Below are positions 19,825 through 55,971 of a DNA stretch of 64,000 nt, piece after piece. The notes below the pieces were generated by a model. It was not told the origin of the DNA. It was given only the letters and a program-made list of their open reading frames with translations, and searched no databases. Source of the DNA: Callorhinchus milii (taxonomy: Eukaryota); contig NW_024704743.1 in the NCBI RefSeq assembly GCF_018977255.1, forward strand, positions 9,302,001 through 9,366,000. The letters run 5' to 3'. Position numbers and translations under genes: made by a program. Each line of letters begins with the position of its first letter. The first letter of the stretch is position 1.

Positions 19825-20112
19825 AATGTATTGTAAAGTGGATTGAGTGTGTATTTTGTGGGCAAAACACAGCAGCCAATTGCACACAGCAGTGTCCCAT
19901 AAAACAGTCATGCAGTGAGTGACCATATTCTTGGGGGGAGGAATTATTACTCCACAAAGCGATCTGCCAGTTGACTAATAACCAGGATCCTACTTACTGC
20001 TAAGTAAACAGAGGGTTGTGGAGTAAGAAAACTTGCCCAATGTTTCGCCCTGCCCGGGAATTGAACTTAGGTCCTCTCACTTGCGAGGTGAGCACACGAA
20101 CCGCTATTCCAC
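19825..20112 (-). mobile_element. tRNA-derived SINE family A
   Basis: Reverse complement of the 2885-3200 element. Confidence 0.85.
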
Positions 20113-20629
20113 GCATAGCTGGAAGTTTAAAAGTGGCTCTGCCCAGTCCCTGAACTGTAGCCTTCTTCCTCACCTCAGATGGCTGAGTTCTTTCCCTCAA
20201 AACATTGGAAAACGATTCTCTTCTGAAAATTATCTCAGAACACAATCTTAAAAATGATCATAAATAAAAAAAATCAAGTGGTTTTTAGGAGCACAGTGCT
20301 GAATGGTTATTGCTCACTCCAGGTCATATCTGCAACCATTACAGCAGCTTTTAGCATTTAAAAGCAGAGAAGTCAATATTCATTTTATCGCACCATGCAG
20401 CTAACATGCCAGTCCTTCAACTGCACCAAGATAATTTGTTAAACACTGAAGAAAATCAGTCTCTTTGGGACAGCAGAGAGTATCTGACCCACTTGGCATT
20501 TCCTTGAAGCGTGTGGCCCTCTTTGGAAAACCCAAGTTGTAAATGGAAAGCTAATGGAATGGGGAATCTTTTACCTATTACACCTATGGGTCAAACCGAG
20601 CAGTCCGCCAACTAACTCTGTTATTCTTA

Positions 20630-21900: not shown

Positions 21901-22039
21901 ATTGCTTTTTTTTATAATAATAAATAATACCTGCATTTGACATAAGCTAATGACCTCCTGAAGTGAAACGCGCAAAACAATGTCATTTGTCATTGCTTCC
22001 TTTCCAAGGTCCTAAAACGAGACATTGCTTCCCAGCTTC

Positions 22040-22325
22040 ACTCCTTCCTCTCCCGCCACTCCCTTCTCAAACCCCTCCAATCGGGTTTCCATACCTCCAC
22101 AGCACAGAAACAGCTTTGGTCAAAGTGACAAATGATTTTTTTGTCCATCTGTGATCAGGGCTCCCTCTGCCTCCTCATCCTCCTTGACATCTCTGCTGCC
22201 TTTATACCGTTGACCACTCTATCCTCCTCCACCGCCTCTCCTCTCACCTCAAACTTCACGGTTCTGTCCTTGAATGGTTCAGATCCTATCTCTCACACCG
22301 TCTCCAATTCATCTGCACAAAATTT
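22040..22325 (+). mobile_element. L2 RT fragment (5' part of an element interrupted by CR1)
   Basis: Reads HSTETALVKVTND...CDQGSLCLLILLDISAAF. Confidence 0.88.
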
Positions 22326-22329
22326 CTCC

Positions 22330-23469
22330 TAGGTTACTGAGGGAAGTAAGGATGGAAATAACGGAAGCTCCGGACACAATCCAGTAGCATGGACACAGAA
22401 TGGCTGGGAGACAGAAAGCAGAGTGGTGATAAACAATTGTTCTTCTGACTAGAGGCAAGTGTGCAGTGGTGTCCCCCAGGGGTCAGTATTGGGACCACTG
22501 CCGTTTTTGATCTGTATAAATGACCTGAACTTGGGTATAGGGAGTACAATTTCCAAGTTTGCAGATGATACAAAACTAGGAAAAGTAGTAAACAGTGAGG
22601 ATAGTAGCAGACTGTAAATGGACATAGACAGACTGGTAACATGGGCAGACACATGGCAGATGAAGTTTAATGTGGAGAATTGTGAAATGATGCATTTTGG
22701 AAGGAAGAATGAGGAGAGGCAATATAAGCTGATGGTCGAATCTTAAAGGGGTGAAGGGACAGAGAGACCTGGGGCTTCATATAAGCAAATCTTTGAAGGT
22801 GGCAGGACAGGTAGATAAAGCTGTTAAAAAAGCAAAGGGGGATACTAGGCTTTATAAATAGGGGCACAGAATACAAAAGTCAGGAAGTTATGATGAACCT
22901 TTATAAATCACTGGTTAGGCCTCAGTTAGAGACTGTGTTCAATTCTGGGCATCACACTTTAGGAAGGATGTCAAGGCATTGGATAGTGTGCACAGCATTT
23001 ACCAGGATGGTACCAGGAATGAGGGACTTCAATTATCAGGAGAGGCTAGAGAAGCGAGGATTATTCTCCTTGGAGCAGAGAAGGTTAAGAGGAGACTTAA
23101 TAGAAGTTTTAAAAATTATGAGGGGGTTTGATAGGGTGAACAAGGAGAAACTATTTCCATCGCGGGTTGGTCGGTAATCCAAGGTCACCGATTTAAAATA
23201 GTTGTTGAAAGAAACAGAGGGGAGGTGAGGGGAAATCGTTTTTACACAGCGAGTTGTTTGGATCTGGAATGCATTTCTTGAAAGGATGGTGGAAGCCAAT
23301 TCGATATCAACTTTTAAGAGAGAAGTAGATAATTATTTGGGGAGGAGTTTGTTTGTAGGGCTATGGGGAGAGAGTGGGGGAGTGGGATTGAATTGGATAG
23401 CTCTTTTCAAAGAACCGGCACAGACATGATGGGCCGAATGGCCTCCTTCTGTCTGTATGATTCTATGAC
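22330..23469 (+). mobile_element. CR1 LINE, 5'-truncated, with intact 3' tail
   Basis: [57 protein letters not shown]; ends ttctgtctgtatgattctatga. Confidence 0.93.
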
Positions 23470-24130
23470 ACCCAACTCTATCTCTGCCTCCACCCTTCAC
23501 TCCACGACCACTGCTGTCCTGACAGAATGTCTGTCAGACATCCTGGATGAGCGCTAACTTTCTACAGTTGAACATCAATAAGACCGAGGCCCTCCTGATG
23601 GTCTCCCGTCAGTGCCTCCACACCTCAGGCACTGGTAACATCAGCATCCAAGGATGCACACTCCACCTTAGTAAGCCAGTCCAGAACCTTGGCATCTTGT
23701 TTGACCCTCAATTATCCTTTGTACACGACATCCGTGTCATGACTGTCTCTGCCTTCCCCCACCTCTGCAACATCGCCCGGCTCCGCCACTGTCTCACACT
23801 GCAGGCAGCCAAGACCCTCAAACACACATTCATAACATCCAGGCTTGACTATCCAAACTCCCTGCTTGTCAGCCACCCCAACTCCACTCTGCCCCCACCT
23901 TCTGGAACTCCATCCCGCAGTCCCTCCACCTCGCCCCTCCCTTGCTTCCATCAAGACCCGTCTCAAGACACTCTTCGATCGTGCCTTTAATCACCCTCCA
24001 TCCCCCCCTACCCTCTACCCTCGTCGATCCTGACCTCCAGTTCGGGTCCATAACACTGATTCTCCAGCTTCTTGAGACGTCCTCTCGACGTAAAAGGCGC
24101 TATACAAATGTCATTTTTTGTTGTTGTTGA
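23470..24130 (+). mobile_element. L2 RT/3' fragment (continuation after the CR1)
   Basis: TQLY...NFLQLNINKTEALL...NLGILFDPQLSF...FITSRLDY; ends ggcgctatacaaatgtc...(gtt)n. Confidence 0.9.
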
Positions 24131-24623
24131 TTGCCTTTCACTTTGGGAGAAAGCGCTTCACAAGAAGTCAATTCACTTTACTGTATATTCTGCGAAGATC
24201 TTTGAGCCGTCTACGAGCACGTAAAAAGCGCTATACCAAATGCAAGGATTATTATTATTTATTATTATGCAAATAAAATAGCCAATTTGTGCACTGCAAT
24301 GTCCCACCAACAACCATGTATAATAATGATAATAATAATAATCCTTGCATTTGATGCAACTCTTTAGCATGTTGTTGAGGCATCTCAAAGCGCTTCACAG
24401 GATATACTGTAAACGGGTGTGACTGGATATTTTGTGGGTGAACAAAATATCTGGGGGGTTATTATCCAGGACACTGGCAGAAATCCCTTTCCAAAAAGTA
24501 CTCAATACTGCTAGACAGCTGCCGAACTACTTAACAGACTTGACTTTTATATTTGGACAGCAAATCAGACTGCAAGATGCATTTCACATGTGACGCAAAT
24601 TAAACCCAATCCAGAAAGAAAAT

Positions 24624-24754
24624 ATATAATACTGCAGATGCTGGAAATCTGAAATCTGACGAAGGGTCGTGGACCCGAAACGTTGACTCACTTTCCTTTC
24701 TCCATAGATGCTGCCTGACCTGCCAAGTGTTCCCAGTGACTTCTGTTTTTGTTA
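24624..24754 (+). mobile_element. Short Penelope-like non-autonomous insertion with hammerhead-like core, flanked by a 12-bp TSD
   Basis: Direct repeats CAGAAAGAAAAT at 24612-24623 and 24755-24766. Contains CTGACGA-A-GGGTC-GTG-GACCC-GAAAC-GTT at 24656-24684. Confidence 0.7.
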
Positions 24755-27123
24755 CAGAAAGAAAATTACAGGTTATAATGCCAGCGTGGTACAGAGGATT
24801 TCATTCATAGCCTCATGGATTATTTAAGTAAGGCTCAAGGAGTTTATGGCTTGTAGTCTGATCCTTTATTTGTTTTTTTTATTCTTTGTAATCGAAAGAA
24901 CAATGTGAATGTGAAGTCGCTCGGAGATTAACAGTAACAGTGCTGCAAGTTACTTTAAGGCACCTTCTTCACAGAATTAAAAGCTATTAAATTTCCACAA
25001 AGCTCCTTTGGAGAAAGCACAGGTTGTACTTTATCTACGCTGCAAATTAATGGTATTTTTGCCAGCTTGTATATACCAGTGCCTTCACCATTTATGGGAA
25101 GTAGTTTTTTTTCTTAATTGACAACTGACACATAGAAAGGAGACTTTGCTCTGTCGCAATGATGTCAGAATTTATATGTGAGGCACCTGGGTAAGTTATA
25201 TTCTGAAAGAAACTAAATTAAATTGATGACTTTTTTTCCAATAAGCACACGAAGAACTGGTTGTAAGTCGTAAGGTTAAAAAAGGCCAGCATTACCATGG
25301 ATCAGACGGATCAAAATGATTGAATACAATTCTGAACCTGACCACCTTGCCCTCCTCAAGGTTAAGGCTATGTATCACGGCAACAAAGAGAAACCATTGG
25401 AGTCTATCATAGGCTGATCACTTAAAATCAATGATATTTTCCCCAGACTTTTATACTGGGATTGTCCCTTTATGCAGAAAACTGCCAGGTTCATACAATC
25501 CCAACCAGTGTTATAATGGGGCATGATTACTAGTCAGTGCTTCAAACACTTCACTGTGTATGTGCGCAGAAAGCCCATGCACCACAAAGCGCCGGCTGGC
25601 TTTTACCCCCTAAAAGATAGCCATCATCTGGGTCATCGGGTCACCACTGATGTCACCTCTTGTGCGATGCGCATCTGTAGAGTGCATGTAGGTGGTAAAA
25701 TGATGACCCACAAGCTGGCCATTTTGTAGTGTACAGGAAGTCCAAATGGGCAATTTCCAAATCATCAGACCACTACCGTCCCTTCCTGCATGTACTCAAG
25801 CATATTAAGGACTACCGACATCCTAGAATTCTTTCAATTTTTNAAGCAGGCGAAAAGCCGGCTGATGTTTTGAAATTAGCTCGCTGGCTTTCTGCCCTCA
25901 TTTTGGATATTTTGTTAAGTAGATGTCAGGGTTCACGTCCCAATCGGGCTATAAGCAGAACCCACATTAAAATCAAATACACTGTAATGGGGTCTCACTG
26001 TAGTTCCTTTGAAATATTTCTATGAAATCGTGTTCCACTATCTTCAGGCTGAGGGCTGGTGTGATAAGATTTTTAGCAAATTGGAGAATCAAAAGTCAAC
26101 AAATTGATCTTACTATGTATATATGCATCACTAAAATAGCAATAAATATTAAATTACACAGAGAAATATTTTAACTATGAATGAGCCTGGTTAATATCTT
26201 TTGGTAATTTCACACATGGTAACTCTTCAATAATGTTTCGACCATCACTGCCAATAAGACCATCTAACACCCTTCTCTCTTTCCCTCCAACGCAGAGTGA
26301 ACTCCCTCCCTCTACACTTCTGTCTTGTTCCCCTCTAACTGCCTTTAAGTCACACTTCAACCATATCCACAGTCACCCCCCGCCCCACACCCTCCCTTGC
26401 TTCGTGCTTCATCTCTGAAGCACTCCAAGATTTTATCCAACATGAAGGGTGCTGGATAACAAGTTGTTGTGTTTCTCACTGACTACAAGGGCCACGCTCT
26501 TTCTGTGTAAATTGAATCACACTCCCATAGGTTTTCTTTTTCAAAAACACAGTATTTCTCCAACCCATTTTCTCCCATCCCCTCTTCCCACGATGGCATG
26601 AATTCCTTGCTGGGGTTTGGTTTCACGATCACCTAACTGAATCTTCAAAGTCGCTTCCTGACATCCAGACACGAGCAGGAGAGGTAACTCTGGTGATTTT
26701 CCCACCTCCCTGAACTGGAGCTTGGAGAACAAATGTAATAATAATAATCCTTATACAGTAAAACTCATTCAGTTTCCTACCAAAAACACTTAGATTTCTT
26801 TACACAACTTGTATTACGCAACTCCTAACTGGTAACGCCGCTCCCCTTCCCTCTATTACTCCCATGCTTACCGGAAGCCTTGAAACTTGGGAAATGACGC
26901 CCTGACCTGTCGATCCAGGTGCACTTACATTGAATCCCAGGAAACATCGTCTTCATCTGTCGACACAGAACTTAATTTCCCGCGATTCAATGCGATTCCA
27001 AAGTTTGCTGGTACAACAACAACAACAACAAGATTCCATTTATAAAGCGCCTTTCACGTCAGGAGGACGTCCCAAGGCGCTGGTACGTGCGCAAGCAGTG
27101 ACAGGTGAAGACTGATCGAATCA

Positions 27124-27136
27124 TGGGAAATGTAGT
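27124..27136 (-). promoter_or_regulatory. ZNF143/THAP11-type promoter motif (ACTACATTTCCCA)
   Basis: Plus strand TGGGAAATGTAGT = exact ACTACAnnTCCCA on minus; ETS-type CCGGAAG at 26871-26877. Function not shown. Confidence 0.5.
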
Positions 27137-27396
27137 CTTAACCAGTCATTGCAAATGCACTTACCGGCTACAATGACGAATTACTACATGTGCACTTACC
27201 AACTGATTTAAGTTTAGTGTGCACAATGTAGATTATTGATTAAATCAGATTTTCTATGACTTCCACAGTTTGCCTGCATCCAAGACTTCGCGTAAGTCAT
27301 ATTAAATGTTATGGTCCCAACCAATACGACTTATGAGAGTTTTATTGTATTTGATACAGCGCCTTTCATATGTAGGATGTATATATGGAGGATGTA

Positions 27397-27503
27397 CAGG
27401 GTGACCAAAAAGTCATGATACCATTACAATGTCTAATAAGTCTTTAAAAAAAAAAGTTTTTTTTGAATAATAGGGTGGTTATCATGACTTTTTGGTCATT
27501 TTG
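27397..27503. mobile_element. Tc1/mariner-type MITE (107 bp)
   Basis: TA|CAGGGTGACCAAAAAGTCATGATA...TATCATGACTTTTTGGTCATTTTG|TA: 24-bp TIRs with 3 mismatches and TA on both sides. Confidence 0.8.
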
Positions 27504-31331: not shown

Positions 31332-31655
31332 TGATATTGCACCTTATCACATCTTCAAAACGTCTCAAAGCGCTTCACAAAATCTACTGCAGAGTGAATT
31401 AATTGTATATTTTGTGGGCAAAATGTGGCAGCCAATTGCACACAGCAGTGTCCCACAAAGAGTTGTGTTTTTTTTGAAGGAATTATTACCCACGGAAAAG
31501 CAATCCGCTAATCAACAAACAACTGGGTTCCTACTTTCTACTCGGTAAACAGAGGCTTGTGGAGTAAGGAAACTTGCCCATCATTTCGCCCTGCCAGGAA
31601 TCGAACCCAGGTCTCTCGCTTGCAAGGCGAGTGCTCTAACCACTGAGCTACTAGA
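31332..31655 (-). mobile_element. tRNA-SINE family A (its distal tail is displaced to 30775-30799)
   Basis: Head gaatcgaacccaggtctctcgcttgcaaggcgagtgctctaaccactgagcta. Confidence 0.88.
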
Positions 31656-32949: not shown

Positions 32950-33177
<228 letters not shown>

Positions 33178-36404: not shown

Positions 36405-36720
36405 GGAGTCCTATAGCTCAGTGGTTAGAACACTCGCCTCGCAAGTGAGAGACCTGGGTTTGATTCCCAGAAGGGCGAAACCTTGGGCAAGTTTCCTTAC
36501 TCCACACGCCTGATAATAATCCCTCAAGAAAAAAAAACAATAATAATTTGTTCACTCAATCCACAACTCTTTATGGAACACTGCTGTACACAAATGCTGC
36601 TGCATTTCGCCCACAAAATATACAGTCAAATCACTTTACAGTATATTCTGTGAAGCGCTTTTGAGACGTCTTGAAGACGTCATAAGATGCTATATCAAAT
36701 GTAATGATCATTATTATTAT
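36405..36720 (+). mobile_element. tRNA-SINE family A, full length, preceded by a Deu-SINE head (36331-36400)
   Basis: ggagtcctatagctcagtggttagaacactcgcc...ttattattat. Confidence 0.88.
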
Positions 36721-37439: not shown

Positions 37440-37762
37440 TAATAATAATAATAATCCTTGCATTTGATATAGCGCTTTTCACGTCGGGGGGACGTCCCAA
37501 AGCGCTTCACAGAACACACTGTAAAGTGAATTGACTGTATATTTGTGGGCGAACGCGGCAGCCAATTGCGCACAGCAATGTCCCACAAACAGTCGTAGAT
37601 TGAAAATGACCAATTTATTATTGTTTTGGGTTTTTGGAGGGATTATTATTAGGCTCTGTGTGGAGTAAGGAAACTTGCCCAAGATTTCGCCCTGCCTGGA
37701 ATTGAACTCAGGTCTCTCACTTGCAAAGCGAGTGCTCGAACCACTGAGCTCCAGGACTCCAC
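37440..37762 (-). mobile_element. tRNA-SINE family A, young full-length copy
   Basis: (aat)n tail through head ccactgagctccaggactccac. Confidence 0.9.
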
Positions 37763-40234: not shown

Positions 40235-40531
<297 letters not shown>

Positions 40532-55662: not shown

Positions 55663-55971
55663 ATAATAATAATAATAATCCTTGCATTTTTTGATATAGT
55701 GCTTTTCACGTCGGGAGGACGTCCCAAAGCGCTTCACAGAACACACTGTAAAGTGAATTGACTGTATATTTGTGGGCGAACGCGGCAGCCAATTGCGCAC
55801 AGCAATGTCCCACAAACAGTCATATGACCAATTTAATTATTGTTTTTTGGAGGGATTATTATTAGGCATGTGGAGTAAGGAAACTTGCCCAAGGTTTCGC
55901 CCTGTCTGGAATTGAACTCAGGTCTCTCACTTACAAAGCGAGTGCTCTAACCACTGAGCTACAGGACTCCA
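55663..55971 (-). mobile_element. tRNA-SINE family A, young full-length copy
   Basis: Near-identical to 37440-37762. Confidence 0.9.

Follow-up and report, generated by a model that had tools for sequence, protein, structure and literature searches.

Results

The window analysed here, a 64,000-nucleotide stretch of Callorhinchus milii DNA (contig NW_024704743.1, forward strand), contains two coding exons of PARD3 and a 131-bp insert (24624-24754) that carries a hammerhead-like core. The nearest upstream exon, with approximate bounds of 33016-33177 on the minus strand, was located by a protein match and has a visible splice donor; across 54 residues, its frame was 100% identical to a PARD3 model that bears the label Callorhinchus. 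A second exon was found at ∼40337-40528. As no further exon was detected in 1-33015 with full-length shark PARD3 as the query, the insert was placed downstream of both exons, where it likely occupies a long intron. The exons lie on the minus strand and the hammerhead on the plus strand, in agreement with the first-pass annotation, which had described the motif as antisense to PARD3. One PARD3 model (P0002) continues past the splice donor and terminates within the intron (32950-33177), and this database model looks truncated. The window is rich in copies of a SINE of ∼330 bp with a tRNA head, and the heads at 2888-2958, 20046-20119, 31593-31651, 36407-36478, 37687-37758 and 55897-55968 were called as tRNAs by ARAGORN and Rfam.

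The perfect 12-bp repeat annotated on either side of 24624-24754 was confirmed at 24612-24623 and 24755-24766. The match does not extend on either side, and the 12-mer has no third occurrence in the window. Perfect 12-mer pairs at a spacing of 100 to 200 nt occurred three times within the 64 kb, and hence the repeat alone constituted weaker evidence of a target-site duplication (TSD). Its identity as a TSD was established by the orthologous empty site of a related organism, organism D. A contig from this organism (run X16, record 25) holds a single copy of the site and aligned in two blocks, 24480-24603 and 24753-24880, which are separated by 5 letters. This contig was shorter than the window by 144 nt, compared to the 143 nt expected for the insert plus one target copy, and the flanks differed at 17 of 252 letters. 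In a same-species run, two contigs contained the left and right junctions. The element was also absent beside the right flank in organism B, but as the left flank of this organism could not be aligned, it was not scored as an empty site. The first 4 nt of the right TSD copy are also family sequence, so that the 12-nt duplication includes a 4-nt microhomology. These results indicated that the 131-bp stretch is a genuine single insertion that is missing at the orthologous site of organism D, and they bear out the earlier proposal of one insertion event. The unique flanks (24480-24603 and 24760-25045) can be aligned in related organisms at ∼86% to 93%, making further empty-site tests feasible.

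The abundance and structure of the family were examined with contigs from 4 of 24 listed sequencing runs, one each from organisms A to D, which were aligned to 24445-25045 at 80% similarity. The four runs yielded 6852, 19099, 18232 and 7788 aligned contigs, with nearly all of the depth falling within 24613-24759. These numbers imply thousands of family copies, the contig counts themselves not being a copy number. No second copy was found elsewhere in the 64-kb window, and four weak BLAST matches there were to tRNA-derived SINE heads. The family traits given below derive from loose-end consensus sequences with an agreement of 0.39 to 0.66 and from the listed entries, which are a minority of the 21 variants, 57 joints and 754 loose ends.

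The order of parts within the insert is target copy, filler, inverted tail, sense body and target copy, and the 3' ends of both family pieces point outward. The filler of 4 nt (24624-24627) has no match to the loose-end consensus of the family tail and may be untemplated or a product of slippage. It is followed by an inverted copy of the 28-nt family 3' tail (24628-24655, minus strand, 3' end to the left). The loose ends behind 24750 and 24758 demonstrated that the family sequence continues into this tail, the reverse complement of which was identical to 24628-24655 at 28 of 28 positions and which extends a few bases more in the family. The first ∼30 nt of the element had been suspected of being an inverted terminal segment, and this identity upholds that suspicion. 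An opposite-strand joint between 24654 and 24751 was present in three of the four runs. The remainder is a 5'-truncated, tail-less sense body of a putative pseudo-LTR (pLTR; 24655-24758, plus strand), a span to which depth and pieces were confined in all four runs. The inversion junction (24644-24659) forms a 7-nt tandem, and the sense body opens with five letters that can pair with the start of the tail; this complementarity could help joining or allow an alternative RNA fold.

Other copies had different arrangements. Among the listed entries, the tail was joined to the body at 24699, 24709 or 24726, or longer inverted pieces were present, and the fixed ends and shared internal layout of a SINE-like family were not found. 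The variety of tail-body joins indicated that the 131-bp layout is a truncated product and not a family unit, a fixed mini-element or a retrozyme. There was a tentative and rather doubtful suggestion, from the sequences of the joints, that family 5' starts may cluster before the hammerhead; the few junction inserts agree with it, but a reference that starts at 24655 biases the view.

All of the core elements reported in the first-pass annotation were present in a minimal type I hammerhead core (24656-24684, plus strand), with a predicted cut after 24684. The core consists of CUGACGA (24656-24662), an extra A (24663), a 5-bp stem II (24664-24668 with 24672-24676), GAAA (24677-24680) and C-G-U-U (24681-24684). 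A generic descriptor of minimal hammerheads, independent of the stem sequence at this site, matched once on the two strands of the 64 kb, at 24656-24684, and in none of 200 dinucleotide shuffles. A pattern derived from the core also detected a single core in the window and no match in 100 shuffles, a result that is circular because the pattern was taken from 24656-24684 itself. The layout agrees with that of the minimal hammerheads (min-HHRs) of Penelope-like elements (PLEs), as described in PMC4209133, in having CUGANGA and GAAA boxes with U16.1 and H17, an extra base after position 9, a G10.1-C11.1 pair and a palindromic 15.2-16.2. This layout and the descriptor match favor the proposed assignment to the Penelope type. 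The suggested Rfam check found no hammerhead match in either the region or the whole window, and a snoR66 match (E 0.88) was taken as chance.

Two of the helices required reinterpretation. The palindrome AACGUU, described as taking the place of helix III, is present, but A14 and U17 belong to the core and an intermolecular helix III would therefore be limited to the 4-nt ACGU at 24680-24683. The poor pairing of helix I was likewise correctly noted, as the 3' strand (24685-24689, plus strand) lacks its partner and retains 1 bp; the cause, however, is not decay but the replacement of the 5' strand at the inversion junction. In the family, the partner strand was found in loose ends before 24655 and 24672. 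Those before 24655 ended in CAGT in all four runs, placing AGUU opposite GACU in a 4-bp helix I, with 5 bp in one X1 line (consensus agreement, 0.39 to 0.45).

The variants listed for the core region were located at 24660 (position 7) and 24668 (top of stem II), both of which are CpG sites. Selection on the core is not demonstrated, because four G>A places in X1 beyond those listed may hit the core. The C>T change at 24668 keeps a wobble pair but falls on a CpG site, as read from consensus lines rather than from a copy-level alignment. At the base of stem II, a two-sided change of A-U for G-C in the loose-end consensus of both X10 and X16 is a hint of covariation only.

Folding of the region was no more stable than that of shuffled sequences (z scores of 0.53 to -0.76). 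The core was buried in the predicted folds of both monomer and dimer, and the active-like dimer had an energy of -17.5 kcal/mol compared to -27.7 kcal/mol for the best dimer. The hammerhead of this copy is likely to be unable to cut, because it has lost helix I and has no partner nearby, runs antisense to the host gene and has its core buried in the predicted folds; the earlier expectation of an inactive copy is thus supported by the lost helix I strand and the modelled folds. Even intact min-HHRs in the literature show weak cleavage, which requires multimers or a protein (PMC4209133, PMC11167929 and PMC6765202). The hammerhead of intact family copies, with a helix I of 4 to 5 bp, would need a second copy, pairing through ACGU, or a protein to cleave.

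Just past the predicted cut, 24685-24710 contains a branch-point-like motif, a pyrimidine tract, an AG and an ATG and resembles a 3' splice site followed by a start codon. The pLTRs of PLEs can hold introns. An intron acceptor and ORF start of a PLE at 24692-24710 was not supported, as a comparison with 31 PLE-type proteins gave no convincing match to the element and as the AG in 24692-24710 is variable at its A, in 36% to 42% of the depth in three of the four runs.

A scan of metagenome contigs for the core detected 47 matches at 45 loci, with only the 28-nt core being common to these loci and the window. The core lay 98 nt past the stop of long frames in L003, L009, L021, L025 and L039 and 163 nt past it in L012. 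GIY-YIG was detected above the cutoff in three of seven proteins scanned, and an RVT_1 match in L023 (E 2.4e-6) was below its cutoff. The relatives of the L012 protein were reverse transcriptase (RT)-bearing proteins of 492 to 955 residues, and a Cys motif before GIY-YIG in the core-sharing loci fits Neptune/Nematis as described in PMC8557442. Helix I, which was outside the search pattern, paired over at least 3 bp in 40 of the 47 matches versus 5.5% of random pairs, with different letters in different families. The matches come down to roughly four independent families of animal type; helix I is paired in three of them, while L012, with its GIY-YIG frame, has 0 bp. At L012:109-153, the core follows the GIY-YIG frame without a helix I in the usual register and may be a shifted-helix variant. 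Two contigs of other animals (L013:473-838 and L040:40-441) contained two opposite-strand cores ∼340 to 370 nt apart, an arrangement of head-to-head pLTR pairs. The matches in prokaryote genomes (L046 and L047) were 18-nt matches in GC-rich bacterial coding DNA and were attributed to chance, as was L045, which is likewise bacterial. Viral contigs gave no matches with two patterns, and no PLE protein or ORF remnant was detected in the 64-kb window at an E value of ≤0.01. The proposed link to an ORF encoding RT and GIY-YIG was therefore found for different families having the 28-nt core in common, but not within the window for the family under study. Based on these sequence comparisons, we infer that the family descends from a PLE.

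Discussion

The most probable reading, to which we assign a probability of about 85%, is that the locus carries a single 131-bp insertion with a 12-bp TSD, in which a 28-nt tail in inverted orientation lies head to head with the 5'-truncated body of a high-copy repeat, and that this insert is a probable dead by-product of a PLE, with a hammerhead that would not cut. A mechanism for its formation can be drawn from PMC11167929, which describes a PLE protein that acts at AT-rich targets, nicking and extending both strands there, and two RT start sites that bound the tail. The GIY-YIG endonuclease of the PLE protein would nick the two strands of AT-rich DNA with an offset of 12 nt. From one of these nicks, reverse transcription would be primed at the inner start site, which precedes the tail, perhaps helped by the 4-nt match, and the cDNA of ∼100 nt would halt just beyond the hammerhead core. 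The other nick would prime at the outer start site, from which the tail alone would be copied. Head-to-head joining of the two short cDNAs and filling of the gaps would then give an insert whose 3' ends both point outward. The 4-nt match may be due to chance, because an Anolis element primed in vitro without homology between RNA and target (PMC11167929). Self-priming is discussed in PMC3846280 as another route to head-to-head junctions.

The closest hammerheads are the min-HHRs found within pLTRs of PLEs from metazoans (Cervera and de la Pena 2014, PMC4209133), which share the CUGANGA/GAAA core, the extra base between positions 9 and 10.1, the G10.1-C11.1 pair, the palindromic 15.2-16.2 without loop 3 and a helix I of 4 to 5 bp, the last being found here in the family but not in the copy at 24612-24766. 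Most are single dispersed copies from truncated PLEs and occur across metazoans, fishes included. Helix II is 7 to 8 bp in Schistosoma compared to 5 bp in this copy, which also lacks the 5' strand of helix I. The searchable supplementary files of PMC4209133 held no shark or Callorhinchus row. Among insertions, PLEs have been described with an inverted 5'-truncated copy and a tail of 30 to 40 bp at one end (PMC8557442), a trait matched by the 28-nt inverted tail, and with TSDs of 8 to 10 bp, a tail of 31 bp and head-to-head junctions, as well as solo pLTRs and empty sites (PMC3846280). The 5'-truncated units of EN+ PLEs (PMC8557442, PMC3846280 and PMC11167929) resemble the insert in the head-to-head inverted piece, the one-end tail of ∼30 nt, the TSD and the AT-rich target. 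The present copy differs in being more extremely truncated, without an ORF, in having an inverted piece that is the tail alone and in having a slightly longer TSD (12 nt, against the 8 to 10 of PMC3846280).

Three other explanations were weighed. The annotation of the element as a tiny non-coding PLE derivative that moved as a unit would make it a mini-element or retrozyme monomer, spreading with its own 131-nt RNA as the template. The single insertion event with a TSD and the thousands of short copies agree with this idea, PLE pLTRs can be moved in trans (PMC3846280), and two records of X1 (records 2 and 3) and one of X16 (record 26) span tail plus body in the same arrangement. Animal non-LTR retrozymes (bioRxiv 10.64898/2026.07.22.740005) derive from pLTRs, occur in a chondrichthyan and are similarly non-coding, hammerhead bearing and dependent on PLE protein. 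They are, however, head-to-tail tandem repeats with complete hammerheads, whereas the locus holds one head-to-head insert with an incomplete hammerhead. A search of 22000-27500 detected no tandem units, the core is the only one in the window, and the helices are not of canonical sizes, all of which argues against the retrozyme-like label. The other joins, at 24699, 24709 and 24726, and the longer inverted pieces indicated that the 131-bp layout is not common to the family; the single insertion stands, but movement as a discrete unit is improbable.

It is very improbable that the insert came from the 3' portion of a LINE or a SINE and was inverted by ordinary twin priming, its hammerhead-like core being a coincidence. 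LINEs and SINEs dominate such genomes and the window, Rfam found no hammerhead and the window contained no parent ORF. In twin-priming inversions of L1, a single RNA gives rise to two oppositely oriented pieces, with 3' ends outward, between TSDs, and the insert has the same opposed pieces, outward ends and duplication. Unlike these, it has no poly(A), its inner end coincides with the boundary of the PLE tail and a different endonuclease is probable. The absence of any poly(A) or simple-repeat tail or of a match to the SINEs or LINE pieces of the window counts against a LINE or SINE origin, as do the lack of a descriptor match in 200 shuffles, the presence of all four unforced traits of PLE min-HHRs and the occurrence of the same core after RT/GIY-YIG frames elsewhere. 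It is hardly credible that the motif has been exapted as a ribozyme for the regulation of PARD3 or of an antisense transcript. Conserved intronic hammerheads are known in amniotes, and all core letters, including four CpGs, are intact in this copy; the motif is nevertheless antisense to PARD3, has lost its helix I partner, is absent in organism D and is buried in the predicted monomer and dimer folds.

The by-product reading involves no novel trait, as the TSD, the head-to-head inversion, the ∼30-nt tail and the minimal hammerhead are all already published for PLE insertions. PLEs have been detected in all vertebrates compared, the elephant shark among them. A description of the present family was not found in the literature searched; it may already be catalogued in repeat libraries, which were outside the scope of that search. 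As one dead copy, the insert at 24612-24766 has little significance. The family extends the set of known PLE hammerheads by an example from a cartilaginous fish, and its short inserts, which are bounded by TSDs and have empty sites that can be recovered from related species, constitute a clean data set for PLE integration, a process that is only partly worked out (PMC11167929). If the clustering of 5' starts before the hammerhead were true, the junction statistics of the family would test how PLE tails and head-to-head inversions form.
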